A DNA stretch of 32,000 bases from Pseudoalteromonas obscura (GTDB lineage: Bacteria > Pseudomonadota > Gammaproteobacteria > Enterobacterales > Alteromonadaceae), in assembly GCF_030135505.1 (NCBI RefSeq), contig NZ_JASJUT010000017.1, forward strand, positions 11,658 to 43,657, written 5' to 3'. The translations under genes and the position numbers were made by a program. Shown here piece after piece: positions 7,208-30,037 of the stretch. The notes beneath the pieces are model-generated. The model saw nothing but the letters and a program-made list of their open reading frames with translations, was not told the DNA's origin and searched no databases. The number at the start of each line of letters is the position of its first letter. The stretch's first letter is position 1.

Positions 7208-7211
7208 TGTT

Positions 7212-13700: not shown

Positions 13701-16700
13701 ATGACTATGAGCCCAGCGGCTGATTGGCACCTCCGTGATGCAGTCTTGGCCCCCAGCTAACACCTGCCAAAACGCTTGCAGTGTATTTGCTTGAGGGTAA
13801 CGTCCTGATATACCGATGATAGCAATATCCGTATCTTGTGCATCTCCACTTTGTTCTGGGCGAGCGCTAGCGACGGACTCTCTTTGCGGTTCAATCGATT
13901 CAGACGAGCTGGTTGTGCGAGGGGCATCACTCGAACTGGTGGGGGGAATGAGGTGTGCCTCAAGTTGACTGCGGTGTGCAGTCAACATGTATTCAGCCAA
14001 TTGCGCGATTGTGTGATATTCAAAAAATAGGGTTTTTGGCAGTGTCCCATAGACAGATTCCAATTTATTGGTCAGCTTGGTCACCACCAAAGAGTCAATT
14101 CCCAGCTCATCAAAACCTGTATCCTGCCCAAGCTTCTCCTTTGCATACCCCGTCACTTGTGAGATCAGCGCGGTCAACTGTTCACATACTGACGCCAGTA
14201 AGACACCCTCATCGGCAGATGATAAGGCACCAGAGTGCCCTTGCACCCGCGTTTTGCCCGTTAAGGAGTCGCTGTACGCCTCGAGCAAGTCATGTAATGT
14301 ACGATAGGCGTTCGCGGTATTTAAGCTGAAATCATGATCACAATGCTGATTTAACTCATTGACAATGGCATGTAACTCTACGATACCGAAACCTTGCTCA
14401 TCCAGCCCAACATGCAGGTCAATTGCACTCGGTGCCACACCGACAACCACCGCGGCCGCGGCGGTAAATCGCGACATCAGTTCACGCTGCACTTGGCCAT
14501 TATTCGGTTGCGTGGCTTTGCTTGGCAGTGCGATAGGCGCTGCCGCACCAATTGAACGAGAGAAGTGCTGTTCAAGTTTTGCCGTATCGCCAGCAATTGC
14601 TATGGTGCGAGTACGCGCTTGGCGCATCACTTGATACAACACCGACAATCCCGCATCGCGCTCAATAGGCTGCATACCTGACATGTCGTATAGTGCTGCG
14701 AGAATATCATCAGATACTTGCATCCCGCCATCACGCCACAGCCCCCAGCCGATAGCACAACTTTGACCAAAACACAGACCCTGCTCAACGCGCTGTTGTC
14801 GCTGCTGCGCATACAGATCCATAAAGGCATTGGCGGCAGCATAATCTCCCTGTCCAACATTACCAACCATGGAAACCGCTGAGGAGAACAGCACAAAGTG
14901 CTCCAGCTTTATCTCTTCACACGCTTGTCCCAAGTGCCATGCACCATAGGTTTTTGGCGCGAGGACTCGTCGAATGCTTTGTGCATCTTTATTGCGTAAT
15001 AGGCCGTCTTGAATAACTCCTGCACAGTGCAACACCGCATTGATCCCACCATGCTCACGCACGGTATTTTGAACCAAGGTTGTCACTGCATCGAGCGCGG
15101 TCAGATCCACTGTCTCATAGCGCACCGTCGCGCCCATTTCTTTCAAACGGGCGAGTTGATTATCTCTGTCTACATCCAGAGGCCGCTGACCCGTTAAAAT
15201 CAAGGTAGGTGCCTGCACTTTTTGCGCAATATCGCACGCACACAAATACCCCAGCTGACCCAGTCCTCCCGTGATCAAATACACCCCTTGATCGCGCCAC
15301 GGATGAGGCACAGGCACTGTATCAAGCACATCCAGATCGCATGCCATCAATTGCGATGCCTCAGCTTTGAACCAGTGACAATGCCTTTGCTGTTTCGCCT
15401 GATCAAGCAAGTTAAATACCTGTTCTTGTGGCAAGTTCGCAGGCAACTCAATGAGTTGCCCTGTAACATTGTCGTTTTCCAAAGAGCACGTTTTCAACAG
15501 TGCCGACATCGCGGGTAAAGTTGACTGTAAGCTCGGCTCTAGAGGAACCACAACTTGCAAAATTTTATGTGACCTACCCTTGTCGCGTATAATGGCTTCA
15601 AATCGCGCCGTCAATTGAATACAAAATTGCGTAAAACTGGTAGCAGGATGTGCCGTCGAACTGGACAGGTGGACAATCCCCTCTCGTGCCGACAAGGCCG
15701 GGTAATCACACAGTACAATATGTTGCTCGATATCTTCGTCCAGCGGCTCATTGTGCATCTCATCCAGTGCCCGCCAACTCGGTGTCATCAGCAGTACCCC
15801 CGCAGCACTGTCTGTTGCCGATGCTGCTAACGGGCCATCATCTCGGGCCGTTACGGGCACAAGCATCGGCGCTTTTGGAATGTCAATCTGTGCAAAAGGA
15901 TAGCCGGGTAAACTAACGCGCTGATATTGTGTGGGCTTGCTAGGAAGCCAATCGATTTCACCCCCTTGGGTCCACAACTCAGCGATATATTGAAACTTTC
16001 TCTCTGCGAGCCAATGCCTTACCAGCTGTTGTGCAGAAGACTCCTGAAATAGCGCCTCAACCCCTCGGTTTTTATCTACTTTGCCTTGCCACAGCTGTGC
16101 ACTCTCAGTACCCTGCTTATAGGCTTTGAGCATCTCAAGCAAGGCGTCTAACGAGTCAACTTCACACGCCATACGGTATGACATGGCTTCTCTGCCCGCC
16201 TGCAAGGTATAGGTCATATTGGCCAGCGATATGGATGGTTGCTCAGTCAAAAAGTTGATGTACTTGTCCACATAACGCGCCAATCCCGACTCGCTTTTTG
16301 CAGACAAGACAAATAAATAAGATGACTCAAGCGCAGTGCTTTGCGCAGCAGTAGGCGCTTCCTCAACCACAATATGTGCATTGCTGCCGCCAGCGCCAAA
16401 CGACGACACCCCAGCGCGTCGCTTCGCGTTTCTCGAAGCCGTATCCAGCTGCCAATCTGTCAGCGAGTGCTGCAATTTGAACGCAGAGGCTGCAAAATCA
16501 ATATGTGGGTTTGGTTGTTCGGCGTTTAAGGTCGGCGCAAGCTTTTTATGATGCATTTGCAATAACACTTTTGTCAGCCCTGCAATGCCCGCAGCCGCTT
16601 CAAGGTGGCCAATATTGGTTTTTACCGAGCCTAGCGCGCAAAATTGCTGTGCCGATGTACCCGCTTTGTAGGCCTCATCTAAGCCCTTAAACTCTACCGG

Positions 16701-19700
16701 ATCCCCGAGTAAAGTGCCGGTGCCATGCGCTTCAACATAGTTGATATCCGCAGCGCAGAGCCCGGCTCTCGACAGGGCAGTACGAATAAGGTTTTGCTGC
16801 GCTAATGGGCTCGGTACTGTGTAGCCGTTGACCTTACCACCGTGGTTTATTGCCGTACCGCGGATAACCCCATAAATGTGATCACCATCAGCAATGGCTT
16901 TGGCCAAGGGTTTTAATAACACCGCGCCCACACCTTCACCGGGCACAAACCCATTTGCCTGCGCGCCGAACGCACTTAACGTACCATCTTTGGACAATAC
17001 ATTAAGCCTAGTGAACTCAGCAAATGTGGAGGGGTGCGTATAGGCATTCACGCCGCCGGCAACAGCCACATCACACTCTCCGGCATAGAGATGCAGGCAA
17101 GCTTCATGGATGGCAGACAAAGACGACGAACACGCGGTATCGACAGGCATACTCGGGCCGCCAAAATTAAAGCGGTAAGAGATCCGATTGGCCGCTGAAA
17201 AATAAGAGTCCTTATAATTGTCAAATCCAGCTTTAGAGATCCCGACAAAGACGCCGACCGTATCACGCTCCAATGCCTTGGTGGTGTAACCAGCATCTTC
17301 AACGACATGCCAAGCGCACTGCATAAAGAGCCGCTCTTTAGGACTCATATACGCAGCTTCAAAAGGCGGTAAATTGAAAAACTCATTGTCGAAATAATTG
17401 AGCCCGTCTAAAAACCCGCCCCACTTTGCCGCCGCTTTAAAACTGTCTCCTTCGCCATCAGCTTGTGCGTCAAAGTACGCTGCAATGGGCCAGCGTTCAT
17501 TGGGGATCTCTCGAATGCTGCTTTTACCAGCAGCCAAGTTTTGCCAAAACTCAAACACATTGTCCGCATCTGGATATTGTCCAGCAAGCCCGATGATGGC
17601 AATGGGTTGTCTCGTGAACGACGGCTTACTCGCGGTGAATTTCCGGCGTGCACCCGAACCGCTCGTTGACTGCTGAAAATGCCGTTTACAATGGTCAATC
17701 AACTTGGCGGGGGTTGTTGCTTCAAACAACACCGCAGGATCTATCTGGGTGGCTAATTTCTCACTCAATGCTTTTGACACCCTAGATACCAATAAGGAGT
17801 CAAACCCCATATCGCTAAATTCCCGCTCAAGGTCAATGTCCCGCTCTGAAACGCGCAAATGTTCAGCAAGTATTGCAATCAATATTTTTGCAATGCGATG
17901 CTCATCATCGCCTGTCGGTGCTGGCTCTATAGTGATGTCCATCGCGGTATCGAGTGTCTGTGGCGCTATATCGGGTGCTATCCAATAGCTTTTTAGGTTA
18001 AATTGTGTGCCTGGCAGATGCACGCGCTGACGCTCTTCGGGCACCATTTCAGGCCACTCACAATGGCCGGTTTCCAGCCATTGTGCCGCAATCGGTTGAG
18101 CCTGCTCGCCAAGCTCTTGACTGTGTCCATGTTCAAAAACATTTGAATTCGCTCGCGCTTGCAACACATCTTCGATCTGTTGCAATAGCTGCTCTCTCGA
18201 TGATGCCAAAAAGATGCAACGATAGTCATGGCTGTCTCGGCCGTGTCGCAATGTGAATGCCAGATGTGAAAGTGGATATGCACGCTGGTTTAATACCTCG
18301 CGTAGCGCAGTGAGTTGGGCGGTGAAACACGCTTTATTCAGTGCTGACACCGGCAGCGCCCAAACTTGCTCACCTTCGGGCTCCCCCTTAACACTTGGCT
18401 CAGACTCCCGATCTAGACCTTCAATTAACACGTGGGCATTATTGCCACCTGCCCCATACGCATGGATCCCCGCCAGTCGATTGCGCGACGTCTTTGGCCA
18501 CGGTATGGTATCTGTTGCCAATTGACAGACACTGTGCTTGGGATCAATATCCGCACTGATCTGGTCAATACCGAGTATCTTGTGTATTTTTTCGCTTTGC
18601 AAACTATGAATGACTTTAAACAAAGCGCCCAATGAAGACGCTGAGTGCATATGGCCGATCATCGGTTTTAAAGTACTCACTTTGCACTGAGCTGGGCGCA
18701 ATGCGACTCCCTGTTGCTGCGCTAGGTTATTAAGTGCAAGGTTAAATGCATCCCACTCGCAAATATCGGCAACCGGATTACCCATGCCCTGAGCTTCTAT
18801 ATAGTCGACCTCTCGCGGATCTATGTTGGCCTTGGCGTAACATGCTTGGATCAGAGATGCATGTGCATTGGTATTGGGCGCAGCAATCGACGCAGAACGA
18901 TTGCCATTATAATTTACCGCTGAATTTTTGATCACGGCATAGATAGCATCCCCATCTTTGCGCGCACGAGAATAGGGTTTAAGTAAAATACTGGCCACCC
19001 CTTCCGCTCGTAAATAGCCATCAGCATCACTGCCAAATGATTTCACTGTCGGTGTTGGACTCATCTGTTGCGATTGCGACAACTTAACGAAGGTATCTGG
19101 TCGCAGCAATAGATTCGCCGCCCCGACTATGGCCTGATCAATCTCCCCCGCGCGCAGTGCAACCACAGCTCTGTGTATCGCCACCGCAGCACCAGAGCAC
19201 ATTGTGTTAACCACTTCACTGGGACCTGAAAAATCAAAATAGTACGAAATATTATTGGCAATCATACTGTCCGATTGATGTAGACTCTCTCCAGTATCAT
19301 AACCCGACTCAATCAAGTTCAATAAATATTCATTGCGTTCAAAACCAACAAAGACCCCTGTATTTGAGCCTTTCAGTGCTTGCGGACGATAACCTGCATT
19401 TTCCAACGTGTTATACACCGACATCAATAACAAACGTTGCTGGGGATCCATACGCTCTGCATCATCGGGTAATAACTTAAAAAAATGAGGATCAAAACTT
19501 TGGATATCGGGAATAAATCCCCCCCAACGACACCGCATTTTATCTGGCTGAGCTTCCTCGGTTTGCACTTCATCAGCATATAAATGCCAGTCAAAACGCG
19601 ATTGAGGGATTTCCTCAATCAGAGACTCATCTTTATCTAAATGCCGCCAAAACTCAGCCACTGATTGGCAACCGGGTAAATACCCTTCTAACCCCACAAT

Positions 19701-19835
19701 GGCGATGGGTTCTAATTCTGAGGAGTCGGTATGACTTTCTTCGGCACTGTCTTTGTTGGCGGATTGAGCGGTGTGTTTTGTCGCGTATTCACGCATCAAA
19801 TCCTTGATCGCCAGTCGCTGTTTTTCTATATCCAA
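10773..19835 (-). CDS. Trans-AT polyketide synthase with architecture KS0-ACP-KS-KR-(degenerate ACP)-ACP-KS-ACP-ACP-ACP (MmpA/TmpA-like)
   Basis: - KS1, about 18411-19712: Cys213 is present (NTMCSGAA). The His motif reads YIEAQGMGN, with Gln349 (18789-18791) in place of His.
- ACP1: Ser680 (GFDSL, 17796-17798).
- KS2, about 16358-17612: complete (DTACSSS, EAHGTGT, NIGHLE).
- KR, about 14770-15880: YLITGGLGQLG, GDYAAANAF. HCAGVIQDG contains the Asp typical of B-type KRs.
- ACP-like fold lacking a Ser, about 14262-14490.
- ACP2: Ser1915 (GIDSL, 14091-14093).
- KS3, about 12536-13838: complete (DTMCASS, EAHGTGT, NIGHCE).
- Three tandem ACPs with Ser2733, Ser2835 and Ser2934.
- No GHSxG acyltransferase motif anywhere in the protein.
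- The start is TTG 19835, 3 nt after the upstream stop. An alternative is ATG 19796, preceded by AAGGA. Confidence 0.95.
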   Translation of the reverse strand: MDIEKQRLAIKDLMREYATKHTAQSANKDSAEESHTDSSELEPIAIVGLEGYLPGCQSVAEFWRHLDKDESLIEEIPQSRFDWHLYADEVQTEEAQPDKMRCRWGGFIPDIQSFDPHFFKLLPDDAERMDPQQRLLLMSVYNTLENAGYRPQALKGSNTGVFVGFERNEYLLNLIESGYDTGESLHQSDSMIANNISYYFDFSGPSEVVNTMCSGAAVAIHRAVVALRAGEIDQAIVGAANLLLRPDTFVKLSQSQQMSPTPTVKSFGSDADGYLRAEGVASILLKPYSRARKDGDAIYAVIKNSAVNYNGNRSASIAAPNTNAHASLIQACYAKANIDPREVDYIEAQGMGNPVADICEWDAFNLALNNLAQQQGVALRPAQCKVSTLKPMIGHMHSASSLGALFKVIHSLQSEKIHKILGIDQISADIDPKHSVCQLATDTIPWPKTSRNRLAGIHAYGAGGNNAHVLIEGLDRESEPSVKGEPEGEQVWALPVSALNKACFTAQLTALREVLNQRAYPLSHLAFTLRHGRDSHDYRCIFLASSREQLLQQIEDVLQARANSNVFEHGHSQELGEQAQPIAAQWLETGHCEWPEMVPEERQRVHLPGTQFNLKSYWIAPDIAPQTLDTAMDITIEPAPTGDDEHRIAKILIAILAEHLRVSERDIDLEREFSDMGFDSLLVSRVSKALSEKLATQIDPAVLFEATTPAKLIDHCKRHFQQSTSGSGARRKFTASKPSFTRQPIAIIGLAGQYPDADNVFEFWQNLAAGKSSIREIPNERWPIAAYFDAQADGEGDSFKAAAKWGGFLDGLNYFDNEFFNLPPFEAAYMSPKERLFMQCAWHVVEDAGYTTKALERDTVGVFVGISKAGFDNYKDSYFSAANRISYRFNFGGPSMPVDTACSSSLSAIHEACLHLYAGECDVAVAGGVNAYTHPSTFAEFTRLNVLSKDGTLSAFGAQANGFVPGEGVGAVLLKPLAKAIADGDHIYGVIRGTAINHGGKVNGYTVPSPLAQQNLIRTALSRAGLCAADINYVEAHGTGTLLGDPVEFKGLDEAYKAGTSAQQFCALGSVKTNIGHLEAAAGIAGLTKVLLQMHHKKLAPTLNAEQPNPHIDFAASAFKLQHSLTDWQLDTASRNAKRRAGVSSFGAGGSNAHIVVEEAPTAAQSTALESSYLFVLSAKSESGLARYVDKYINFLTEQPSISLANMTYTLQAGREAMSYRMACEVDSLDALLEMLKAYKQGTESAQLWQGKVDKNRGVEALFQESSAQQLVRHWLAERKFQYIAELWTQGGEIDWLPSKPTQYQRVSLPGYPFAQIDIPKAPMLVPVTARDDGPLAASATDSAAGVLLMTPSWRALDEMHNEPLDEDIEQHIVLCDYPALSAREGIVHLSSSTAHPATSFTQFCIQLTARFEAIIRDKGRSHKILQVVVPLEPSLQSTLPAMSALLKTCSLENDNVTGQLIELPANLPQEQVFNLLDQAKQQRHCHWFKAEASQLMACDLDVLDTVPVPHPWRDQGVYLITGGLGQLGYLCACDIAQKVQAPTLILTGQRPLDVDRDNQLARLKEMGATVRYETVDLTALDAVTTLVQNTVREHGGINAVLHCAGVIQDGLLRNKDAQSIRRVLAPKTYGAWHLGQACEEIKLEHFVLFSSAVSMVGNVGQGDYAAANAFMDLYAQQRQQRVEQGLCFGQSCAIGWGLWRDGGMQVSDDILAALYDMSGMQPIERDAGLSVLYQVMRQARTRTIAIAGDTAKLEQHFSRSIGAAAPIALPSKATQPNNGQVQRELMSRFTAAAAVVVGVAPSAIDLHVGLDEQGFGIVELHAIVNELNQHCDHDFSLNTANAYRTLHDLLEAYSDSLTGKTRVQGHSGALSSADEGVLLASVCEQLTALISQVTGYAKEKLGQDTGFDELGIDSLVVTKLTNKLESVYGTLPKTLFFEYHTIAQLAEYMLTAHRSQLEAHLIPPTSSSDAPRTTSSSESIEPQRESVASARPEQSGDAQDTDIAIIGISGRYPQANTLQAFWQVLAGGQDCITEVPISRWAHSHYYDAEKGKPGKTYAKWGGFIDGVDKFDPSFFNISPREAEIIEPQERLFLQTAYEAIEDAGYSRASLAQNTALDGTPGAVGVYVGVTYQEYQLYGAQETMLGRPMVLSMSPSSIANRVSYFCDFHGPSLAIDTMCASSLTSIHLACQSLLSGECKAAIAGGVNVSIHPAKYLMLGYGGFASQTGRCKTFSAEADGFVPSEGVGAVLLKPLREALQDGDNIYGVIKGSAVNHGGRTYGYSVPSPTAQQTVIARALAQAKVRPQEISYLEAHGTGTSLGDPIEVAALNKAFSTDKNKDHLCAIGSVKSNIGHCESAAGIAGLTKVLLQMKHQQLVPSLHSEQINPKIEFAQSPFVVQQQLAPWPSRDDAPRIAGVSSFGAGGSNAHLIVQEAPKQVEQHGNNRSHLQVITLSARSHEQLKEMASNLLHHLRREQLSQDDVQRIAYTLQTGRETFDYRLACMAGDLAEIHTGLERFLAADSVPAEAESWLNSLVCTGVADENQAQSTPLDPSFLSTIKRTDEAQRDVRCKELVSAWLRGREIQWHALYDHQSPVKISLPTYPFVAKRYWKPASDEALRAQMVNALSRNTPALPAPQERKSGKIQLVDPQLFAVKKVALTAPARPLEKAQTPAPQLDSSVEMVTVNETPKAHACEGTDTFSKDFLRASLAKALMMNEDEISDNTPFSNIGLDSIVGVEWVRAINAQYNLALAVERVHEYPSINQLHAHLQQSGACEASAVQPEMTETALSTPAQEEAADDEAVINTVIATLANALLLDAGDIRAQSRFVDLGLDSIVGVEWIRAINNHFGTHIEANAVYEHPTPAAFSQYLTSLFAEPQTSTGDAAQLDSSVSLQAPSEYTSLDFLRTSLATVLMMAEQEIKAATRFADLGLDSITGMEWIKVINQTMQLSLNADIVYEHNTLESFSGYIQSQLESKGMQQAQEIIRALQAAQRSDEATQDAHLGVAGQHKEHKQMEEVL

Positions 19836-19838
19836 AAC

Positions 19839-20963
19839 TTATTTCACTCCTGTATATGCTGCTACGAGCTGCTCCAAATGGGGTAAAGAGTCCTTTACTG
19901 ATGCGTAATCCACGCCAAAGTCCATTAAACACGCAATTTCATTCACGCCGATGTCCTGTGCCTGTTTGACGATCCGCTTACCATCTTCAACTGTGCCGAA
20001 CAACGCACCGGTCTTAAAATATCGCTGAAAAGCATATTCCAAAATACTGTCTTTATCTTGCTCACCAAATTCAGCAGCGCCCTTTTTCTGCAGCGAGTCA
20101 CTGGCTAGGTGGGCTTCCATTGAACTGCGAATATATGCTTTGAATGGACTTTCCACTGCGCGCTTCACTTGCGAGATAGAGTCTCCAATCAAGGTATGAA
20201 GCATCAGTGTGACCACCCCCGACTCAGGGTCAAAACCGGCCCGTTTTCTCGCCGCCCTATAAATGTTGATCTTTCGCTCCATGGAGGCAAGATCGACGCC
20301 GTAAAGCATGGTAAATACGTTGTGACCACTCGCACCAGCCTGCTCAAATCCCTTGTCATTTTGAGCGACTAACATCCACACGTTCAACGACTTTTGAATA
20401 GGTCTTGGGTAGACTTTGGTCGCATAAGAGGTGTTATCAGGTCCCTCAAACTCAACACTTTCCCCAGCCCACAGTCGTTTAACGATTGAGATCTGCTCCG
20501 TCATTTTCTCTCGACGGTCATCATAGTTATGTGGGGCATAAATAAAGTCAGGTTTATTCCACCCAGAGCCAAATCCCAGATCGACACGCCCATTGGACAG
20601 AATATCATTCATAGCCCACCATTCCACCACCTCTGCGGGGTGGTGCAGCGGTAAGCTCACGCCCGCAGTGCGAAAGCGAATATGCTTTGTTTGCGGGATA
20701 AGATAAGCCGCCATGACCGCTGAGTTTGGGAAAATCGCGCCAAATTCATGAAAGTGACGTTCAGGCAAGTAAACCGCGGTGAACTTAGCTTGATCTGCAA
20801 ACTGAGTCAACGCGGTGATAAAGTCGTATTTCTCTGAGCTGGTAATGTCTTTGCGGATGTCTGAAAAAAACATCATGCTGAACGCCATTTCTCCAGCCGG
20901 TTTGGGATCTGACTTCACAGGTAAAAAGTCAGTATCTAAACCTAACAGTGCTTGTATTGTCAT
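19839..20963 (-). CDS. Luciferase-like (FMN-dependent) monooxygenase (MupA-like)
   Basis: The ORF shows LLM-family features: FSMMFFS (first strand), LPERHFHEFG, GRVDLGFGSGWN. The track's start at 20996 is a TTG. ATG 20963 has an upstream AAGGA. ATG 20888 (MAFSMMFF, preceded by GGAGAA) would give the N-terminus most typical of the family. The start is therefore uncertain. Confidence 0.85.
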   Translation of the reverse strand: MTIQALLGLDTDFLPVKSDPKPAGEMAFSMMFFSDIRKDITSSEKYDFITALTQFADQAKFTAVYLPERHFHEFGAIFPNSAVMAAYLIPQTKHIRFRTAGVSLPLHHPAEVVEWWAMNDILSNGRVDLGFGSGWNKPDFIYAPHNYDDRREKMTEQISIVKRLWAGESVEFEGPDNTSYATKVYPRPIQKSLNVWMLVAQNDKGFEQAGASGHNVFTMLYGVDLASMERKINIYRAARKRAGFDPESGVVTLMLHTLIGDSISQVKRAVESPFKAYIRSSMEAHLASDSLQKKGAAEFGEQDKDSILEYAFQRYFKTGALFGTVEDGKRIVKQAQDIGVNEIACLMDFGVDYASVKDSLPHLEQLVAAYTGVK

Positions 20964-21210
20964 CAATAATTTTATCCTTAAATTATTCCAGCCCAAAACG
21001 ACTGCGCTTCAGCACCCAGTATATCGTTACACATAATTTTTTAGTGTTGCGCATGCGGCAAACACTCTGGCACTGACAAAGTGATGTTGTAGAAATCGTA
21101 TTTGAATCGTTTTTGATTATGCAAAATTTTCCCACACAATCCAACCATTGTTCGTTGGCAAAATCACCTTAGGGATTTTTACACGCACTTTTTGTTTCGC
21201 TCATCTCATT

Positions 21211-21250
21211 TTGTCTCATGCGTGAGACAAACCTTTAATTGCAATTAAAG
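21211..21250. promoter_or_regulatory. Two adjacent palindromic candidate operator sites
   Basis: TTGTCTCA-TGCG-TGAGACAA (21211-21230) has 8-bp perfect arms. It is followed 2 bp later by the perfect 18-bp palindrome CTTTAATTGCAATTAAAG (21233-21250). I checked both base by base. Confidence 0.45.
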
Positions 21251-21482
21251 AAACAATAACAGTATCACCAATGGTTCGTACCACTCACCCTGCCACAACC
21301 GCATCAGATAGTTTAAACACACAATAAATACAATAGGTTAAACAGTTAAATTGATAACATATTTAGACTGAGATATACAAGGGTTTTACTGTGTGTAAAT
21401 ACCCAACCGTGCTCGGTGCCAGTGAAAACATACACCGAACCTACAATTCTCTTGGAAAATAATCCCATAAGTGCCGTAAGCC

Positions 21483-21510
21483 TTTTACGTTGTTGAATTT
21501 ATGGTATGAT
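21483..21510 (+). promoter_or_regulatory. Candidate sigma70 promoter with an extended -10 for the IleRS gene
   Basis: TGGTATGAT (TGn plus TATGAT) ends at 21510, about 58 nt upstream of the ATG. The -35 is only weak (TTTTAC, 16-nt spacer). Confidence 0.3.
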
Positions 21511-21568
21511 GAAATATCAGCTTATCGCTACAGCATAATGAACTCTAATTAAAGGTTACTTTGGCAGA

Positions 21569-24500
21569 ATGAACGGCAATACTCTCGATACAGATCAGAA
21601 TACATTTTCCTTTGTTGATGCGGAACGAAAAGTCCTTGATTTTTGGGAAAAACAGGATATTTTTCAGAAATCTCTTCGTCAAACAGCCAACAATCCACCC
21701 TATGCATTTTACGATGGTCCTCCATTTGCAACTGGTAAACCACACCATGGGCATCTGCTGGCATCCACCATTAAAGATATTATCCCTCGCTACTTTACGA
21801 TGAAAGGTTATTACGTCCAACGCCGTTTTGGCTGGGATTGTCATGGCCTACCTATTGAGCATGAAACCGATAAAACCTTGGGTATGTCAGCCAAAGAGGC
21901 CGTTGAGACCTTAGGGATCAAAGCATACAATGATGAATGTCGAGGTATCGTTCAACGCTATACTAAAGAGTGGCGCTCTACCGTTACACGCATTGGCCGC
22001 TGGGTCGATTTTGATAATGATTACAGAACCATGGAACCTTGGTACATGGAGTCTGTATGGTGGGTGTTCAAACAACTTTGGGAAAAAGACCTTATCACCC
22101 AAGGCGTCAAAGTTGTGCCGTTTTCTACCACTTTAGGCACCGTTTTATCTAACTTCGAAGCGGGCTCTAACTACAAAGATGTGCAAGATCCTGCACTTGA
22201 AGTGTTGTTCAAATTAGAAGACGAAGACTGCTATATCGCAGCGTGGACCACCACACCTTGGACTTTACCTTCCAACTTGGGACTGTGCGTCAAAGCCGAT
22301 GCCGACTACATAAAAGTGTTAGATGAAGATAAAGATATACACTTTATTATTGCCAAAGCGCGCCTTGAAGCCATAGGTAAAGGGAAAAACTTAACTGTAG
22401 TGCAAGAATATACAGGCGCGGAATTGGTCGGAAAACGCTATGAGCCGCTCTTTGATTATTTCAAAGAACTAAAGAATGAAGGCGCATTTGTTGTCCTTGC
22501 TGACGATTATGTCACCATGGACAGTGGTACGGGTATCGTACATATCGCACCAGCATTTGGTGAAGACGATAACCGCGTCATGAAAGAGGCAAATATTCAA
22601 GCCGTTGTGTGCCCTTTGAATATGGTTGGCGAGTTTACCGAAGAAGTGACGGACTTTAGCGGAATGCACGTCAAAGAAGCGGATAAGAAAATCATTCGCC
22701 ACTTAAAAGAAACAGGCCACCTGTACAGCCACACCACCATAGTGCACAGCTACCCGTTCTGCCCGCGTTCTGACACGCCGATCATCTACCGCTCTATTCC
22801 ATCATGGTATGTCAAAGTAGAGCAGATGCGCGACAAGCTCGTGGCATTGAATCAACAGATCAACTGGGTACCTGAATATATTAAAGAAGGCCGGATGGGG
22901 AACTGGTTGGCTGGCGCCATTGACTGGGCAGTCTCGCGAAACAGATACTGGGGAACACCGATTCCGCTGTGGCGCAACGACGTTACTGGCAACTATTTAT
23001 GTATTGGTTCAATTGAGGAATTGGAGCGCTATTCAGGGATCCGTGTCGATGACTTACACCGTGACTACGTCGATGATATTGCTTTCAGTGTGGCAGGTGA
23101 AGAAGGCACTTATCAGCGGATTGAGGAAGTACTCGATTGTTGGTTTGAGTCAGGCGCGATGCCGTATGCTCAGCTCCACTACCCGTTCGAAAATCAGTCT
23201 CTTTTCGAGTCCAGCTTTCCAGCTGAATTCATTGCCGAGGGACTAGACCAAACACGCGGTTGGTTTTATACCCTATTGGTATTAAGTCAGGCTTTACACG
23301 ATAAGCCCGCATTTAAGAACGTCATTGTTAATGGCATCGTGATGGCAGAAGATGGCAAGAAAATGTCGAAGCGCTTGCGCAACTACACTCAGCCAGATGA
23401 CATCATGGAAGAGTTTGGTGCCGATGCTCTACGCTTATATTTAATCAACTCAGGTTTGGTAAAAGGCGAACCACAACACTTTTCAAACGAAGGTGTGAAA
23501 CTGACCGTTCGTCGTGCCTTGCTGCCTTGGTGGAATGCTTTTAAGTTCCTGAAGACCTATATAGAAATCGACGGGTGGAAACCTTCAAATACCGCGCACA
23601 CAATCACCAATCCGTTGGATCATTGGATACTGTCCAAGCTGCAAACATTGAAGTTAAAGGTCACCACGGAGATCGAAAACTATCAGTTATATAACGTGAT
23701 CCCGGTGTTGTTTGAGTTTATTGAGCAATTGACCAACTGGTATATCCGCCTCAATCGCTCGCGCTTTTGGGCTGAAACACTGACTGAAGACAAGGCATGT
23801 GCATATCAGACGCTGTACACCTGTATCTATGAATTGAGCTTGGCCATGGCACCGTTTGCGCCGTTCTTGTCAGAGCATATCTATCAAGAGATGCTAGCCT
23901 TACAAGATCATGGGGAGCAACCTGAGTCAGTGCACTTGTGTGCATATCCAACCGTGGATGAAGCACTCATTCAGCCAGAGCTTGAAGATGCACTTGCGCT
24001 ATTACAAAACGTCGTGTTGCTAGGTCGTCAAAAGCGTAATAAAGAGCGGATCAAGACCAAAATCCCTCTAATGAGCCTAACAGTGATCCATCGCGATACA
24101 GGTCTCCTTCAAGAGATCAAGAAGTTAGAGTCTTACTTACAAACAGAGCTGAATGTAAAATCAGTCGTCTATCGTGAAGACGAAGACTCCTTTATCAATT
24201 TCTACGCCAAGCCAAATTCACCTTTGCTGGGCAAAAAGTTGGGTAAATCATTTAAGCAATATAAAACGCTTATTGAGGCACTCACTGGTGAGCAGTTACG
24301 TCAATTAGAGAAAGACGGCAGCATTGAACTTGAGGGCATGCGCTTCGACAAAGAAGAAATCCTCACTTTCCGTGAACCAAAAGAAGGCTCAGAAGTCATT
24401 TCTGATAGCTATATTTCCATTGAACTGGACTGTAAACTCAACGAGGAGTTATTGGCTGAGGGTCTGGCCCGTGAAATCGTTAATCGTGTTCAAAAAACAC

Positions 24501-24715
24501 GTAAGCAGCTTGATTTTAAGATCGAAGACCGTATTCATGTCGAATATGCATGTGATCAAGCACTCGACGCCGCTATCGCTGCACATACAGACACCATCTC
24601 ATCGGAGACATTGGCATTGAGCTTTGAAAAGCGCGATATCGCATCTGATGACACGGTTGCGCGTTATGATGTAGAGGGCCATACGCTATTGCTTAAGTTG
24701 AGTAAGGCGACATAA
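21569..24715 (+). CDS. ileS: Isoleucyl-tRNA synthetase, eukaryote-like type 2 (MupM/TmlM-like putative self-resistance enzyme)
   Basis: 1048-aa ORF. The HIGH region is YAFYDGPPFATGKPHHGHLL, the PPFATG..H.GH form typical of type 2/eukaryote-like IleRS rather than the PYANG..HIGH form of gammaproteobacterial IleRS1. KMSKS is present as GKKMSKRLRNY. Class Ia editing-domain and anticodon-binding regions are present (WTTTPWTLPSN, DQTRGWFY). I saw no C-terminal Cys-rich zinc motif. Confidence 0.95.
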   Translation: MNGNTLDTDQNTFSFVDAERKVLDFWEKQDIFQKSLRQTANNPPYAFYDGPPFATGKPHHGHLLASTIKDIIPRYFTMKGYYVQRRFGWDCHGLPIEHETDKTLGMSAKEAVETLGIKAYNDECRGIVQRYTKEWRSTVTRIGRWVDFDNDYRTMEPWYMESVWWVFKQLWEKDLITQGVKVVPFSTTLGTVLSNFEAGSNYKDVQDPALEVLFKLEDEDCYIAAWTTTPWTLPSNLGLCVKADADYIKVLDEDKDIHFIIAKARLEAIGKGKNLTVVQEYTGAELVGKRYEPLFDYFKELKNEGAFVVLADDYVTMDSGTGIVHIAPAFGEDDNRVMKEANIQAVVCPLNMVGEFTEEVTDFSGMHVKEADKKIIRHLKETGHLYSHTTIVHSYPFCPRSDTPIIYRSIPSWYVKVEQMRDKLVALNQQINWVPEYIKEGRMGNWLAGAIDWAVSRNRYWGTPIPLWRNDVTGNYLCIGSIEELERYSGIRVDDLHRDYVDDIAFSVAGEEGTYQRIEEVLDCWFESGAMPYAQLHYPFENQSLFESSFPAEFIAEGLDQTRGWFYTLLVLSQALHDKPAFKNVIVNGIVMAEDGKKMSKRLRNYTQPDDIMEEFGADALRLYLINSGLVKGEPQHFSNEGVKLTVRRALLPWWNAFKFLKTYIEIDGWKPSNTAHTITNPLDHWILSKLQTLKLKVTTEIENYQLYNVIPVLFEFIEQLTNWYIRLNRSRFWAETLTEDKACAYQTLYTCIYELSLAMAPFAPFLSEHIYQEMLALQDHGEQPESVHLCAYPTVDEALIQPELEDALALLQNVVLLGRQKRNKERIKTKIPLMSLTVIHRDTGLLQEIKKLESYLQTELNVKSVVYREDEDSFINFYAKPNSPLLGKKLGKSFKQYKTLIEALTGEQLRQLEKDGSIELEGMRFDKEEILTFREPKEGSEVISDSYISIELDCKLNEELLAEGLAREIVNRVQKTRKQLDFKIEDRIHVEYACDQALDAAIAAHTDTISSETLALSFEKRDIASDDTVARYDVEGHTLLLKLSKAT

Positions 24716-25141: not shown

Positions 25142-26563
25142 ATGTCAGTGGCGACAAGCTATTTGACAATATATGAGCAACCAAAAAAGGAAGCTAACCC
25201 AGTGGATAGAACATGGATTTTGGATCGCGTAAAACAGTTCGATGAGACCCTTGCGGTTGTTGAAGAAGATAAATGCATTACCTTTGATGCAATTGCCCAA
25301 AGCGCTCACAATTGGCTGACCAATGAGTCGATCACAGAACGCAGTATCATTGTCATCAATGGATTATTTAACGCAACGACGTTGGGGTTGATGCTTTGTG
25401 CCTATATCAAGCAATGCACAATCGTGCCATTATTTAATAGCGATGCAACGCATGTAGACACGATCATTGACACGGTTCATCCAGATTTACTGTGTGACAC
25501 ACGCGACGACATCATGTACTGCAGCACGATAGCCCCCTTTGCAACCACCAAGCCTGCATTATTAAAGCAACTGAATACATTGGGAGAATCTGGACTGATC
25601 TTATACAGCTCTGGCAGCACAGGTACACCCAAAGCCATTTTACTCAGCTTAGACAAGCTTTTGCAGCGTTATCAAGTTCACAAAGAGCACCCCACCTCCA
25701 CCATCGCAGGCTTTTTGTTTTTTGATCACATTGGCGGTTTTGATGTCTTGATGCAGTGCCTAATGACAGGATGCACCTTGGTCAGCATGACTAAACGCAC
25801 CCCTGAAGATGTGTGTCAGGCCATTGAAAAACATCGTATCAATGTATTACCCACTACGCCGACTTTTCTCAACATGGTGTTGATCAACCGCAGCTATCAA
25901 CGTGTAGATCTAAGTTCACTTACCGTGATTGCATATGGCTCAGAAGTCATGCCACAAGCAACACTCGACTTGCTGCAACAAGCGTTGCCGCATGTCACGC
26001 TAAAACAAACATATGGTATGAGCGAGCTGGGGGTTTTACCCACAGAGTCGAAGGCAGGCAACTCACTGTGGCTAAAAATAAAAAAAACCGACTACAAAGT
26101 GCAGGATGGCGTGTTGTGGGTCAAATCGCCAACGGCCATGCTTGGTTACCTCAACCAAGATCATGCGCCATTGAATGATGGGTGGCTGTGCACTGGGGAT
26201 TTGGTGGAGCAACAGGGGGACTATATTCGCATTCTGGGGCGCCAGAGCACAGTGATAAATGTCGCGGGTGAAAAGGTATTTCCGGCCGAAATTGAAGCCT
26301 TCCTATTACAAATTCCATTTGTAAAGAATTCATCAGTCTGGGGGAAAAAGAACCCGATCACCGGAAAAATTGTCGCAGCGACAATTTACACTGATGAAGA
26401 AGTCGATCCGAAGCAGGCAAAAAAACATATTTTAGATATCTGTAAGCGAACCTTAGCCCCCTACAAAATTCCAAGACACTTCGAATTTGTAAATGAGCAG
26501 TATCATAGCGAAAGGTTTAAAAAAATCAATAAGATACAAGGAACACAAACCAGTGGAAAATAA
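25142..26563 (+). CDS. AMP-dependent acyl-CoA/acyl-ACP synthetase (adenylate-forming ligase, MupQ-like)
   Basis: 473-aa ORF with adenylation core motifs: LYSSGSTGTPKAILLS, QTYGMSELG, WLCTGDLV, INVAGEKVFPAEIE, PYKIPRHFEFV. ATG 25142 has no obvious SD. An in-frame GTG at 25202 is preceded by AAGGAAG 8 nt upstream and is an alternative start. Confidence 0.9.
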   Translation: MSVATSYLTIYEQPKKEANPVDRTWILDRVKQFDETLAVVEEDKCITFDAIAQSAHNWLTNESITERSIIVINGLFNATTLGLMLCAYIKQCTIVPLFNSDATHVDTIIDTVHPDLLCDTRDDIMYCSTIAPFATTKPALLKQLNTLGESGLILYSSGSTGTPKAILLSLDKLLQRYQVHKEHPTSTIAGFLFFDHIGGFDVLMQCLMTGCTLVSMTKRTPEDVCQAIEKHRINVLPTTPTFLNMVLINRSYQRVDLSSLTVIAYGSEVMPQATLDLLQQALPHVTLKQTYGMSELGVLPTESKAGNSLWLKIKKTDYKVQDGVLWVKSPTAMLGYLNQDHAPLNDGWLCTGDLVEQQGDYIRILGRQSTVINVAGEKVFPAEIEAFLLQIPFVKNSSVWGKKNPITGKIVAATIYTDEEVDPKQAKKHILDICKRTLAPYKIPRHFEFVNEQYHSERFKKINKIQGTQTSGK

Positions 26564-27278
26564 AAAGGGTACAATTGTGATCAGCGGTGGAAGCCGAGGG
26601 TTGGGGTTCGAAATCGCGTCCCAATTTTTGCAGCAAGGATATACCGTTGCGACATTTTCAAGAGGCAGTACTGAGCATGTAACAGCACTTGCAGATGATC
26701 CACGCTTTTTTTGGAAGTCGGTTGATGGCAGTGACTATCAGGCTCTAACCGAATTTCTCAAAGAAGCTCAGCAGCGACTCGGCAATATTGTTGGCCTGGT
26801 CAACAATGCCGCCATTGGTGCGGATGGGGTGCTCAGCACAATGCGTACATCTGACATTGACCGGGCGTTGGATGTGAACCTCAAAGCACAGATCTATCTA
26901 TCAAAATTAGTTTCGAAGAAGCTCTTGCAAAACCGCGATGGGTTTATCATTAATATCTCTTCCATCATGGGCGTAAGAGGGTTACCTGGTGTTTCAATTT
27001 ACAGTGCCACAAAAGCGGCAATGGATGGCATGACCAGAAGCTTAGCGAAAGAGCTAGGCAGAAAAGGGATCCGTGTCAACTCTGTCTCTCCGGGCTATTT
27101 TGCCAGTGACATGGTGAAAGATCTGTCAGATGACATTTTAGGTAAAATTGAGCGCCGTACACCGCTAGGGCGCTTAGGTACACAGAGTGAGATTGCCAAG
27201 TTGGTGCTATTTTTAGCAACTGAGGGGCAATTTATCACCGGGCAAAACATCGTCATAGATGGAGGTTTTACATGTTAG
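26553..27278 (+). CDS. Short-chain dehydrogenase/reductase, 3-oxoacyl-ACP reductase-like (MupS-like)
   Basis: Motifs: Rossmann GGSRGLG, NNAAIG, catalytic ISSIMG and YSATKAA, PGYFASDM. The track's ATG at 26493 would overlap the ligase gene by 71 nt and add an atypical N-terminal extension. GTG 26553 (VENKKGTIVISGG), with AAGGA about 10 nt upstream, gives the usual spacing before the glycine motif. Confidence 0.88.
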   Translation: MENKKGTIVISGGSRGLGFEIASQFLQQGYTVATFSRGSTEHVTALADDPRFFWKSVDGSDYQALTEFLKEAQQRLGNIVGLVNNAAIGADGVLSTMRTSDIDRALDVNLKAQIYLSKLVSKKLLQNRDGFIINISSIMGVRGLPGVSIYSATKAAMDGMTRSLAKELGRKGIRVNSVSPGYFASDMVKDLSDDILGKIERRTPLGRLGTQSEIAKLVLFLATEGQFITGQNIVIDGGFTC

Positions 27279-27607
27279 ACACACAACAAGTTAAAAATGA
27301 GGTGTTGGATAGTATTATCCAAGAGGTGGCCACAATACTGTCTGAAAAGTCGCTGCCGATCACACAACTGGAAAGCGCTACAGCATTTTCTGAATTGTCA
27401 TTAACGTCTCTGGATTTGGCCGAACTGATCAGCAATCTAGAAGCGCGCTATGAAGTTGACCCATTCGAGGAATTGGTTGCCATCACCAGTGTCGTTACCA
27501 TAGATGATCTCGCTGCGGCTTATACGCTGGGCTTATCAGGTCAACCTGAGGGGACACATGACGCCCTCAGCGAAGAGCTAAAAGCCATAAAGAATCAAAC
27601 ACGGTAA
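27272..27607 (+). CDS. Discrete acyl carrier protein (mAcpD-like)
   Basis: 111-aa ORF with the motif LSLTSLDLAELI and helical ACP spacing. It overlaps the SDR stop by 7 nt. Confidence 0.8.
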   Translation: MLDTQQVKNEVLDSIIQEVATILSEKSLPITQLESATAFSELSLTSLDLAELISNLEARYEVDPFEELVAITSVVTIDDLAAAYTLGLSGQPEGTHDALSEELKAIKNQTR

Positions 27608-27740
27608 TCGAGCTAGACACTGACATATAAGATCATAGCGACACATTGGCTATATGCGCCATCATTTTGGTGCTCGCTATGGTATTTCAGCTGTTCATAT
27701 CTAGCGTGACTCAGAGATATAAACGTAGAAGTAAAAATAC

Positions 27741-29990
27741 ATGATGGCTACAGATGATATAGCAATTGTCGGGCTCGCTTGCCGATTTCCAGAGGCAAGT
27801 TCTCCGGCCCAGTTTTGGCAAAACTTAGCACAGGGACGGGAGTCCATAGCAAGATTATCCGACGCGCAATTACGCAACGCAGGTGTCAGCGACAGCGAAT
27901 TTGAGCAACCCAGTTACGTCAAAGCATATACCCCCCTTGCCGATATCGACAAGTTTGATGCGCGCTTTTTTGGGATCCCAGCAGCAGAAGCAAAGTTAAT
28001 GGACCCACAACAGCGGACCTTGCTTGAAATTATCTATCACGCTTTAGAAGATGGCGGCGCTTTGCAAACAGCGCAGCAGAGAGAAACTGGTGTCTATGCA
28101 ACTGGTGGCGGGATCACCCGTAGCTATCTTTATCAAGAAGCGACAAAGCACTTTAAGGGCAATAGTGATACCGGCAGCTTGTTACAATTACTCAACGATA
28201 AAGATTTTCTTGCGACACGGGTATCCTACAAATTAAATTTACAAGGCCCCAGTCTCTCCGTGCAAACAGCCTGCTCAAGCTCCATGGTTGCAGTTCACTT
28301 GGCAAGAAGCGCATTACTGAGCGGAGAAATCGATATCGGTATCGCCGCAGCCAGCTGTATCAGACTACCACAAGAACGGGGCTACAATGCCGCAGAAAGT
28401 ATGATCTACTCACCAACCGGTCGCTGTAGAACATTTTCAGACGACGCCGATGGCACCATTTTTGGCAGTGGCTCAGGCGCAGTGGTACTCAAACGTTATC
28501 AAGACGCACTGGCCGATGGCGATCATATTTATGCACTGCTCAAGTCAACCGCGGTCAATAATGATGGGGCTGGAAAGTTTGGGTTTACCGCTTCCAGTGT
28601 GCCAGGTCAAGCCAAGGCCATGGTTAAAGCTATCGCATTGGCGGGGATCAGTGCGGACCAGCTCAGCTATATTGAATGCCATGGCACTGCGACCAAAATA
28701 GGCGACCCACTGGAGATCCGCTCGCTCGAAAAAGCATTTTCACTGGATACCGATAAAAAACAATTTTGTCATATCGGTAGCGTCAAACCGAATATAGGTC
28801 ATTTAGAGCAGGCGGCTGGACTTGCCAGCCTCATCAAACTTGCGCTGATGATAAAACATCGTCGGCTTGTGCCCACTATTAATTTTCGCGCACCCAACCC
28901 GAAATTAAAATTGCCACAATCCCCCTTTAAAATGGCACTCGACTATGAAATGTGGGAACCCGAACAACAGCGGTGCTACGCCGGGCTGAACTGTTTGGGT
29001 GTGGGGGGCACCAATGTATTTGCCATTCTCAGCGATCTCCCCACCACCGACGCGACAGCATCCAATGACAACAACCTAGTTGAACCTGCACAAGATGTGT
29101 TGTGTCTGTCAGCCAAAACGAAAACACAGCTCGTCGAATATATCGAGTGTATCGCAAACGATGAACGGCCTTTGCCACTGTGTGCCCTCGCCTACAACAT
29201 CAATACCAGCCGTGCACATTTACCAATACGTAATACAGTGGTGATTGACCGGGATATGAGTATAGGACAGTGGCGCGAACAAGCCTTGACCAAGATCGCG
29301 GCGTCCAGCGAGCGGCGTGGAACGACATTTGATAAACCAATCCAGTATATATGTAACCCCACAGAATTCGTTCATGCCAGCCAAGTAGCTACACTGGCCG
29401 CTGACATGCGCTGCCAATGTTTTACAGATGCCTATCAACGCTGGATGGACAGTGCAGCGCTCACTCTCATAAGTGACTCCACGGCCCCCTTTACACAGCA
29501 CGTGGCGAAATTGTTGGCATTTGAACTGGCATTGTATGAGCAGTTAAAGCACTGGGGATTAAAGATGGCATCATTTCTTGGTGAGGGAATAGGTCGATAT
29601 GCGCAACTGTTGTTGGAAAATGTCCCCTCGCAACAGTGGCTCAGTACGCTGGAAAAAGAACTACATATACATCACGATAATTTAAACCACGCACAAACTC
29701 ATAGCTTTTCTCAGATGGGTGAAGTGGCCATTGAGCAAGATCTACACCTCGCAAGTGAAGGCCCGATAATTTATCGCAATCGTCCTTTACATAACCTCAC
29801 AGATGATGTGTATGTCTGTGCCAGCGAACAGTTTACTACCACCGAACTGTGGTCCCTGCTTGCCACGATTATCGACAAAGGCGCGCAAATTAACTGGCAA
29901 AACTACTATCCTCTCAAGGCTTTTGAAAAACATACTTTACCCAACTATCCATTTGAGAAGAAACGCTATTGGTTGGTTGATGAAGACTAA
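27741..29990 (+). CDS. Stand-alone type I ketosynthase with a C-terminal vestigial acyltransferase/linker region (MmpF-like)
   Basis: 749-aa ORF with a complete KS: VQTACSSS, IECHGTAT, PNIGHLEQAAG, LGVGGTNVF. The C-terminal third aligns by eye to the N-terminal half of an AT: LLAFELALYEQLKHWGLKMASFLGEGIGRYA matches the pattern LFA.E.AL..LW.SWG......GHS.GE..A. The GHS triplet is replaced by ASF. The protein ends with the post-AT linker LPNYPFEKKRYW. Confidence 0.9.
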   Translation: MMATDDIAIVGLACRFPEASSPAQFWQNLAQGRESIARLSDAQLRNAGVSDSEFEQPSYVKAYTPLADIDKFDARFFGIPAAEAKLMDPQQRTLLEIIYHALEDGGALQTAQQRETGVYATGGGITRSYLYQEATKHFKGNSDTGSLLQLLNDKDFLATRVSYKLNLQGPSLSVQTACSSSMVAVHLARSALLSGEIDIGIAAASCIRLPQERGYNAAESMIYSPTGRCRTFSDDADGTIFGSGSGAVVLKRYQDALADGDHIYALLKSTAVNNDGAGKFGFTASSVPGQAKAMVKAIALAGISADQLSYIECHGTATKIGDPLEIRSLEKAFSLDTDKKQFCHIGSVKPNIGHLEQAAGLASLIKLALMIKHRRLVPTINFRAPNPKLKLPQSPFKMALDYEMWEPEQQRCYAGLNCLGVGGTNVFAILSDLPTTDATASNDNNLVEPAQDVLCLSAKTKTQLVEYIECIANDERPLPLCALAYNINTSRAHLPIRNTVVIDRDMSIGQWREQALTKIAASSERRGTTFDKPIQYICNPTEFVHASQVATLAADMRCQCFTDAYQRWMDSAALTLISDSTAPFTQHVAKLLAFELALYEQLKHWGLKMASFLGEGIGRYAQLLLENVPSQQWLSTLEKELHIHHDNLNHAQTHSFSQMGEVAIEQDLHLASEGPIIYRNRPLHNLTDDVYVCASEQFTTTELWSLLATIIDKGAQINWQNYYPLKAFEKHTLPNYPFEKKRYWLVDED

Positions 29991-30037
29991 CGTTGTTACA
30001 CCTAGACTAACAAAAGATACAAGGAGCATGAAATAAC

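Follow-up and report, generated by a model that had tools for sequence, protein, structure and literature searches.

A TmlM-type isoleucyl-tRNA synthetase with a probable role in thiomarinol self-resistance on a pTML1-like plasmid of Pseudoalteromonas obscura P94

Why does a gene cluster for polyketide synthesis carry an isoleucyl-tRNA synthetase (IleRS)? The question is raised by a 32,000-nucleotide stretch of Pseudoalteromonas obscura P94 (contig NZ_JASJUT010000017.1, positions 11,658 to 43,657), here called the window. An open reading frame (ORF) that runs from ATG to stop at 21569..24715 on the + strand encodes a type-2 (eukaryote-like) IleRS of 1048 amino acids (aa). We conclude, with a probability of about 0.9, that this gene is the orthologue of tmlM and that it encodes the thiomarinol self-resistance IleRS of a pTML1-like biosynthetic plasmid of ~98 kb. 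Self-resistance had been proposed in a preliminary description of the stretch, and is supported by the orthology (91% identity to TmlM) and by synteny with pTML1. The system itself is not new: the characterisation of TmlM dates from 2011, and recognition of the cluster in Pseudoalteromonas luteoviolacea from 2016.

The protein is present in public records as WP_284138782.1 / MDK2598361.1 of P. obscura P94. It is identical to the pTML1 IleRS, TmlM (WP_013933274.1), at 956 of 1048 positions (91.2%) with 0 gaps, and the genes share 80.8% nucleotide identity (megablast, PLSDB). The IleRS of P. luteoviolacea NCIMB 1944 is 98.7% identical to the P94 protein. When expressed in E. coli, TmlM raises the minimal inhibitory concentration (MIC) of thiomarinol from 0.5 to at least 16 µg/ml, and the MIC is 1 µg/ml with MupM and 2-4 µg/ml with MupA (PMC3069032; Fukuda et al., 2011, PLoS One 6:e18031). 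Plasmid-free segregants of the producer, strain SANK 73390, are thiomarinol-sensitive, so that resistance of the producer requires the plasmid (PMC3069032). P. luteoviolacea 2ta16 and NCIMB 1944 have a tml-like cluster, and thiomarinols A-D were detected from them (PMC5069768; Maansson et al., 2016, mSystems 1:e00028-15); the IleRS gene goes undiscussed in that paper. The P94 gene shows full-length orthology to TmlM, clusters tightly in the tree with TmlM and the copies from P. luteoviolacea, and is located among tml/hol genes in divergent orientation to tmlA-tmpA. Because the protein is 91% identical to TmlM and ~99% identical to the copies in confirmed producers, we infer that the P94 allele also confers resistance.

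The replicon can be recognised from its wider gene content. Megablast against PLSDB returned a single record, pTML1 of Pseudoalteromonas sp. SANK 73390, to which the first 25 kb of the window are ~78% identical over 56%. On one side of the IleRS gene, synteny with pTML1 extends over a monooxygenase, a 3023-aa polyketide synthase (PKS), an acyl carrier protein (ACP), a ketosynthase (KS)-like protein, a hydroxymethylglutaryl (HMG)-CoA synthase, an enoyl-CoA hydratase, a PKS and an alpha/beta hydrolase. On the other side it includes an acyl-CoA ligase, a short-chain dehydrogenase/reductase (SDR), an ACP, a free KS and a small ORF, then ParB/ParA. This gene-for-gene correspondence with the tml cluster bears out the suggested location in a mupirocin-type PKS cluster. 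A Logan contig of 97,891 bp, in which ParA lies next to ParB, matches the window at 100% identity, and the NCBI contig is 97,982 bp long, compared with 97,600 bp for pTML1. The replicon is considered pTML1-like because ParB is followed by ParA on the source contig. An orthologue of HolA, the pyrrothine nonribosomal peptide synthetase (NRPS), is also encoded on the P94 contig (WP_284138792.1). The contig therefore combines the two halves of the thiomarinol pathway, tml genes and HolA.

Shared with pTML1 are a 1048-aa enzyme, its motifs, its placement divergent from tmlA-tmpA with ligase, SDR, ACP and KS genes next to it, a palindrome in the divergent spacer, and a ~98-kb ParAB plasmid type with hol NRPS genes. 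The P94 system differs in host species and in PKS genes that are far more diverged (TmpA, TmpE-like PKS and free KS). The gene order is also that of P. luteoviolacea 2ta16 and NCIMB 1944, where flanking DNA is ~91% identical to that of P94, but the species and the allele are different.

A gene of this class could also be the sole housekeeping IleRS of the host, of type 2 by chance and located beside a PKS, with intrinsic insensitivity being sufficient. Many bacteria indeed have an IleRS2 as their only housekeeping enzyme, and the joint presence of both types is described as rare (bioRxiv 10.64898/2026.02.03.703510). The nearest deeper relatives of the P94 protein (~66% identical) are moreover encoded by chromosomal genes in metagenome-assembled genomes (MAGs) of Pseudomonadales and have identical motifs. 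However, the P94 gene lies on a ~98-kb, pTML1-sized contig with ParA/ParB, it is found only together with tml/hol genes across strains, and its product is placed apart from the enzymes of its own order, accessory island copies excepted. In addition, Alteromonadales normally carry an IleRS1 gene in a ribF-ileS-lspA context, as does E. coli. We therefore regard a housekeeping role as highly improbable. P94 presumably has a separate housekeeping ileS, given the plasmid-type replicon and the viability of plasmid-free SANK 73390. A tblastn search of PLSDB with E. coli IleRS1 hit mislabelled chromosomes from other genera and none from Pseudoalteromonas, of which this database contains no chromosome.

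The assignment to a tRNA synthetase is secure. The region 21569..24715 is not a chance ORF, because the product scores well against Pfam tRNA-synt_1 and TIGR00392 and because dN is 0.053, in comparison with a saturated dS of 2.3, relative to the pTML1 orthologue. Pfam domains identified in the protein are the class I catalytic domain PF00133 (tRNA-synt_1; E=1e-147), the anticodon-binding domain PF08264 (E=4e-33) and a C-terminal DUF5915 of ARD2/ARD3 type (aa 857-1046; E=3e-45), and the zinc finger PF06827 is absent. The control, E. coli IleRS1, has PF06827 without DUF5915. DUF5915 occurs in MupA, in relatives that are 78-80% identical and in those that are ~66% identical alike. A zinc-binding domain as opposed to ARD3, which is homologous to ARD2, is the traditional divider between IleRS1 and IleRS2 (bioRxiv 10.64898/2026.02.03.703510). 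Against NCBIfam models the protein scores 931.8 bits for the ileS equivalog TIGR00392 (cutoff 621.4) and falls under the cutoff of each of the valS, leuS and metG models. These results, with the motifs HHGH and KMSKR, make it an isoleucyl-tRNA synthetase, a member of aminoacyl-tRNA synthetase class I.

The type of the enzyme is equally clear from scores against sequences of solved structures. The P94 protein reaches 1019-1099 bits with eukaryotic cytoplasmic IleRS, 773-780 bits with the IleRS2 of P. megaterium, 671 bits with the IleRS of T. thermophilus, and 262-321 bits with IleRS1 of S. aureus, P. megaterium and others. Given solved homologues that are ~50% identical, the predicted fold is not in question. 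In a neighbour-joining tree (distance-based, no bootstrap, few IleRS1 sequences), the cluster copies, five in number, form a compact clade whose sister consists of four proteins (P0003-P0006; 78-80% identical), and both are nested in marine gammaproteobacterial IleRS2. Outside of this group are MupA (36%), the PGIHH-bearing IleRS of a Bacteroidota plasmid (38%) and, as a distant outgroup, E. coli IleRS1 (25%). A phylogeny with reference enzymes, which the preliminary description had called for, thus groups the P94 gene with TmlM in IleRS2 and leaves E. coli IleRS1 remote. The C-terminus is of type 2, without the IleRS1 zinc domain, and by its catalytic (HUP-2) domain the enzyme falls among IleRS2 and eukaryotic proteins rather than IleRS1. 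As judged from its sequence, the P94 enzyme is confirmed as a type-2, eukaryote-like IleRS; domain architecture, the hierarchy of structure scores and the tree agree on the class that had been proposed.

The eukaryotic cytoplasmic IleRS (PDB 7D5C, 8WND, 9W01) are the top-scoring solved structures for the P94 protein. Their HIGH region is near-identical, with the common pattern DGPPFATG-x-PH[Y/H]GH-[IL]LASTIKDI; in fungal and human enzymes it reads DGPPFATG[T/L]PHYGH[I]LASTIKDI. The P94 enzyme differs in being bacterial and plasmid-borne, in having HHGH rather than HYGH, and in being without the extended C-terminus of the eukaryotic enzymes (the chain of the human enzyme has 1263 aa).

Among resistance enzymes, MupM of the mupirocin producer P. 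fluorescens and staphylococcal MupA/MupB are comparable to the P94 enzyme, in its predicted role, in being drug-insensitive second copies of type 2, with DUF5915 and without the zinc finger. A resistance gene that lies within the cluster (MupM) or on a plasmid (MupA) follows the same logic as TmlM. MupA is nevertheless only 36% (35.8%) identical to the P94 enzyme, and MupM is not the nearest relative of TmlM (PMC3069032), with which our tree is in agreement. The NCBIfam exception models for MupB and MupA give 740.1 and 729.3 bits, compared with cutoffs of 1900, which places the protein outside of both families. The P94 enzyme would work like MupA/MupB and yet belongs to neither family.

Do the signature motifs themselves indicate resistance? 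From the translation of the ORF at 21569-24715 we read PPFATGKPHHGH at residues 51-62, in which the HIGH motif is HHGH (aa 59-62) in the canonical H-x-G-H order, and KMSKR at aa 598-602, both as quoted previously. The contrast drawn with housekeeping IleRS1 also matches, the E. coli counterpart being PPYANGSIHIGH. The proposal that the motif pair is a signature shared by mupirocin-resistant IleRS2 stands only in part: both motifs are present, but staphylococcal MupA has PPTANGLPHTGH and KMSKS. Chromosomal IleRS of marine Pseudomonadales MAGs (~66% identical) have PPFATGLPHHGH and KMSKR, and there are hundreds of such chromosomal genes whose products are ~62-67% identical, including those of Pseudohongiellaceae, Azotimanducaceae/OM182 and Natronospirillum. 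Because the pair is common to chromosomal IleRS2 of marine Pseudomonadales and to eukaryotic IleRS, it marks the class and not resistance. What argues for resistance is the orthology to TmlM together with the genomic context. The His at the second position of HHGH was considered as a TmlM-specific residue and rejected, as every ~66% relative has HHGH.

In some IleRS2, a swap between the first and third positions of the HIGH motif (GXHH; [G/A]-x-H-H) brings up to 1000-fold mupirocin hyper-resistance (PMC10485003; Brkic et al., 2023, Nat Commun 14:5498). The P94 enzyme resembles these proteins in class and in its predicted resistance function but is without the swapped motif, and its canonical HHGH rules out this mechanism. 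A GXHH-type HIGH motif (PGIHH) was identified in the Riemerella anatipestifer IleRS that serves as an outgroup (NZ_CP072187.1; record L088, 2989-6387). The gene for this enzyme is found together with lspA; the record, of 104 kb, is typed as a plasmid. The record may be a chromosomal fragment, or it may be a plasmid that carries a hyper-resistant IleRS2.

In the IleRS1 and IleRS2 structures of P. megaterium, resistance of IleRS2 has been put down to fewer contacts with mupirocin. The closed KMSKS loop of IleRS2 blocks a hydrogen bond to the nonanoate carboxylate, Pro and Asn contacts of IleRS1 are missing, and where IleRS1 has a Phe stacked on the C2-C3 bond of monic acid, IleRS2 has a reoriented His. 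In our alignment, counting back eight residues from the first Lys of KMSKS leads to Ile590 in P94, to His in MupA and P. megaterium IleRS2, and to Phe in E. coli. Thus, the P94 enzyme has no aromatic side chain at position 590. The equivalent of Ile590 is kept in all ~66% relatives.

Thiomarinol is a marinolic (pseudomonic-type) acid that is amide-linked to pyrrothine (PMC3069032), and it blocks the Ile-AMP site of the ordinary IleRS of the cell. The plasmid would supply a second, catalytically complete type-2 IleRS whose synthetic site binds thiomarinol poorly, so that charging of tRNA-Ile could continue during antibiotic production. The structural basis is probably the general IleRS2 mechanism, with a shifted HIGH helix and a closed KMSKS loop through which the IleRS1 contacts are lost. 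The non-aromatic Ile590 in place of the IleRS1 Phe, and lineage-specific substitutions, may be added factors.

Such substitutions bear on the possibility that the gene is a generic IleRS2 passenger, in which case any type-2 enzyme would be equally protective and the lineage would not be adapted to thiomarinol. The HIGH/KMSKS motifs and Ile590 are identical in relatives outside of the cluster, as this possibility would predict, and inhibition of IleRS2 generally takes >1000-fold more mupirocin (bioRxiv 10.64898/2026.02.03.703510). In E. coli, however, MupM and MupA protect poorly against thiomarinol (2- to 8-fold), unlike TmlM (at least 32-fold) (PMC3069032). Furthermore, 24 substitutions are fixed in the TmlM clade: the five cluster-associated proteins agree with one another at these positions, where 114 relatives share a different residue with at least 95% invariance. 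The fixed residues include T100 (segment GWDCHGLPIEHE-T-DK) and S549 (directly before EGLDQTRGWFY); I612, P635, H637 and T646, also fixed, flank the KMSKS region. The majority of the 24 substitutions also occur in the four 78-80% relatives. A passenger without adaptation to thiomarinol is thus very unlikely in our view.

Relative to pTML1, dN is 0.053 for tmlM, 0.044 for the HMG-CoA synthase gene and 0.055 for the SDR gene, and it is 0.11-0.20 for the ligase, ACP, KS and KS-like genes. The gene is under purifying selection, and its dN is among the lowest of the cluster. Some natural-product pathways use homologues of aminoacyl-tRNA synthetases, and the enzyme might accordingly serve the pathway, for example in the supply of aminoacyl-tRNA or an adenylate, rather than protect the cell. 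The position of tmlM at the head of the tailoring unit tmlM-to-tacpB (PMC3069032) is in keeping with this idea, but the protein is a full-length IleRS with intact catalytic, editing-region and anticodon-binding domains. Thiomarinol has no isoleucine-derived unit, and TmlM alone suffices for resistance in E. coli (PMC3069032). A biosynthetic role is thus exceedingly improbable.

The gene is flanked on its 5' side by the tmlA orthologue (19839..20963, - strand), a flavin mononucleotide (FMN)-dependent luciferase-like monooxygenase of the MupA/Atu3671 family that heads the divergent PKS unit. The ORF lister extends tmlA to 20996 (TTG start); calls in pTML1 and the Logan contig place an ATG at 20963. 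Next is a tmpA-like trans-acyltransferase PKS with multiple KS and ACP domains (3020 aa; 10773..19835, - strand; 68% identical to its pTML1 orthologue). The divergence from the PKS operon that had been described is therefore correct. Located 3' of tmlM on the + strand (25142..30310) are genes for an acyl-CoA/AMP ligase, an SDR, an ACP, a free KS (749 aa) and a 90-aa ORF, which correspond to the published pTML1 unit tmlM-to-tacpB (PMC3069032). The C-terminal part of ParB, a plasmid partition protein, lies at the window end (31511..32000, - strand). No tRNA genes occur in the window.

How is expression of the IleRS gene arranged? The tmlA/tmlM intergenic region (20964..21568) spans 605 bp, or 572 bp if the TTG start at 20996 is used. 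Aligned with pTML1 and NCIMB 1944 it has 82% mean column identity and two near-invariant islands. The perfect palindrome TTTGTCTCA-TGCG-TGAGACAAA at 21210..21231, a candidate operator, occurs at the same site in pTML1 and P. luteoviolacea NCIMB 1944. A terminator-like hit at 21210-21231 was set aside in favour of this palindrome. A second pTML1 copy, TTGTCTCATGCATGAGACAA, lies in the other divergent region, 5' of the tacpA-to-hol unit (record ~80920-80939; L089 41921-40). The palindrome TTGTCTCA-N4-TGAGACAA thus has one copy in either divergent promoter region of pTML1 and a single copy in the window. In the published description of pTML1, tmlM-to-tacpB and tmlA-to-tmlF are divergent units for which closely related inverted repeats were proposed as operators (PMC3069032), and the palindromes are evidently these repeats. 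As Fukuda et al. found no regulator gene on pTML1 (PMC3069032), the palindrome-binding protein is presumably chromosomal. Expression of tmlM might be coordinated with the PKS operon via the conserved palindrome, by a regulator that is not encoded on the plasmid.

Directly 5' of tmlM is a conserved island of ~92 nt (21477..21568, + strand) that has two differences from pTML1 despite the saturated dS of ~2.3, and is better conserved than the coding sequence. By eye, a putative extended -10 element (TGG-TATGAT) can be placed at 21502-21510 on the + strand, from which tmlM would be transcribed. The leader is A/U-rich and unstructured, with a conserved AAGGTTA and TTGGCAGA-ATG; the AAGGTTA is 15 nt before the ATG, which is unusually distant for a Shine-Dalgarno sequence. 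The core of the island (CTTTT-C, TGnTAT[G/T]AT, TTAT, AAGGTTA, TTGGCA[G/A]AATGA) recurs 5' of the 78-80% relatives outside of PKS clusters. Thus, the putative promoter and the leader go with the gene rather than with the cluster, which would fit an immunity gene that is expressed independently of antibiotic production. The earlier suggestion of a regulatory region shared with the main operon is only partly borne out: the common spacer has a conserved palindrome, but tmlM also has a putative promoter and a leader of its own, which accompany the gene outside of clusters as well.

Other elements were sought in the spacer. A consensus sigma-70 scan found 9 sites where 9.5 were expected, which is not above chance. 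A riboswitch, attenuator or T-box in the leader was rejected: there was no Rfam hit at E<=1, the minimum free energy z-score was +1.0, and no consensus pairs occurred among six homologues. A 10-codon upstream mini-ORF noted by eye (MMKYQLIATA) has one Ile codon only and is not kept in leaders of the orphan genes, and was likewise discarded. On the tmlA side of the spacer is a conserved block (21096-21170) whose minus strand reads TTGGAT-17 nt-CATAAT (-10 at 21121-21116). This block is possibly the promoter of the tmlA/tmpA operon, below the threshold of the scanner.

Several points weigh against the interpretation of the P94 gene as the thiomarinol self-resistance gene. The enzyme differs from TmlM at 92 of 1048 residues, and the P94 allele is known from sequence alone. 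The motifs and Ile590 are common to presumably housekeeping IleRS2 of marine Pseudomonadales and cannot alone explain the phenotype. The residues of TmlM that would give resistance to thiomarinol in particular, beyond that to mupirocin, are candidates only. The separate housekeeping ileS of P94 is a presumed gene, and the consensus scanner reports no promoter site at the extended -10 placed by eye.

Orphan relatives of TmlM were also identified. These IleRS2 (78-80% identical, 1065-1070 aa) are encoded by accessory genes outside of PKS clusters in contigs of uncultured Alteromonadaceae (L090 12837-16034, - strand; L091 12319-15531, - strand; L084 4234-7431, + strand; compare L092 10001-13564). 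In an island of the P0005 type, found on two contigs, fadBA on one side and a GGDEF gene on the other enclose the IleRS2 gene together with genes for a FAD_binding_4/BBE oxidase of 843 aa and for a DUF4231/SLATT_1 protein. Alteromonas sp. a30 (FadA 90% identical) has fadBA and the GGDEF gene at that site, and the three island genes are absent. The island IleRS2 gene may serve a non-producer as an immunity gene on its own. The gene for P0003 (80% identical; L083 195-3350, + strand) is followed by a gene for a Rieske ferredoxin (3452-3775, - strand) that is 49% identical to the pTML1 Rieske protein. Beyond this are an HTH-HipA toxin-antitoxin pair, a Fic-like gene and an Smr gene, a context resembling that of mobile elements.

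DNA of the tmlM-to-KS block occurs in assemblies labelled as other genera. It is 98.6% identical in Vibrio sp. S9_S30 (13-kb contig L003; tmlM at 931-4077) and 89.5% identical in Alkalimonas collagenimarina AC40 (L004; tmlM at 321-3467), and a HolA orthologue is present in both assemblies. The S9_S30 block is flanked by an IS630-type helix-turn-helix transposase, an integrase fragment and pRiA4_ORF3/UPF0236 genes; the AC40 block is followed by a transposase and a phosphopantetheinyl transferase at the end of a 192-kb contig. Either the block has spread horizontally to hosts other than Pseudoalteromonas, or the assemblies are mislabelled or contaminated.

It is tentatively suggested, although we consider it rather doubtful, that TmlM-type enzymes form a distinct, mobile sub-lineage of eukaryote-like IleRS2 with its own conserved promoter and leader and ~20 lineage-specific substitutions at positions invariant elsewhere. 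Its genes would spread without the antibiotic cluster, conferring immunity on their own in marine Alteromonadales that live on surfaces. The island next to fadBA, absent at the a30 site, illustrates this best. If this is true, shared substitutions around the synthetic site, such as I100T, G549S, L612I, E635P, R637H and M646T, and not a HIGH swap, would defeat thiomarinol, a femtomolar-class binder.

What does P94 make? Amino-acid identity to pTML1 is 66-73% for the products of the PKS genes (2900-7255, 10773-19835, 27741-29990), compared with 89-92% for the resistance enzyme, HMG-CoA synthase and SDR. Given the stronger divergence of the PKS genes, P94 and its relatives may make analogues of thiomarinol or marinolic acid and not the identical product. 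P94 is a coral isolate that has been proposed as a probiotic for inhibiting Vibrio coralliilyticus, as seen from inhibition zones, and the paper names no compound (PMC13532223). P94 is a predicted thiomarinol producer, and given the pTML1-like plasmid, thiomarinol is an obvious candidate for the agent of its anti-Vibrio coral-probiotic activity.

In summary, the logic of target duplication correctly flagged both the product class and the target at this locus, which may serve as a positive control for resistance-guided genome mining. The five natural TmlM alleles and four 78-80% relatives provide a short list of candidate positions for the basis of thiomarinol as opposed to mupirocin resistance, which are relevant to mupirocin successors against MupA-positive methicillin-resistant Staphylococcus aureus (MRSA). 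Two matters give the locus residual interest. TmlM-like genes outside of clusters, and transposase-flanked tml/hol genes in assemblies that bear the names of other genera, suggest that the determinant is mobile in marine bacteria, possibly as a mobile TmlM-like sub-lineage. Furthermore, a candidate coral probiotic, P94, is identified as a predicted thiomarinol producer with a pTML1-like plasmid.

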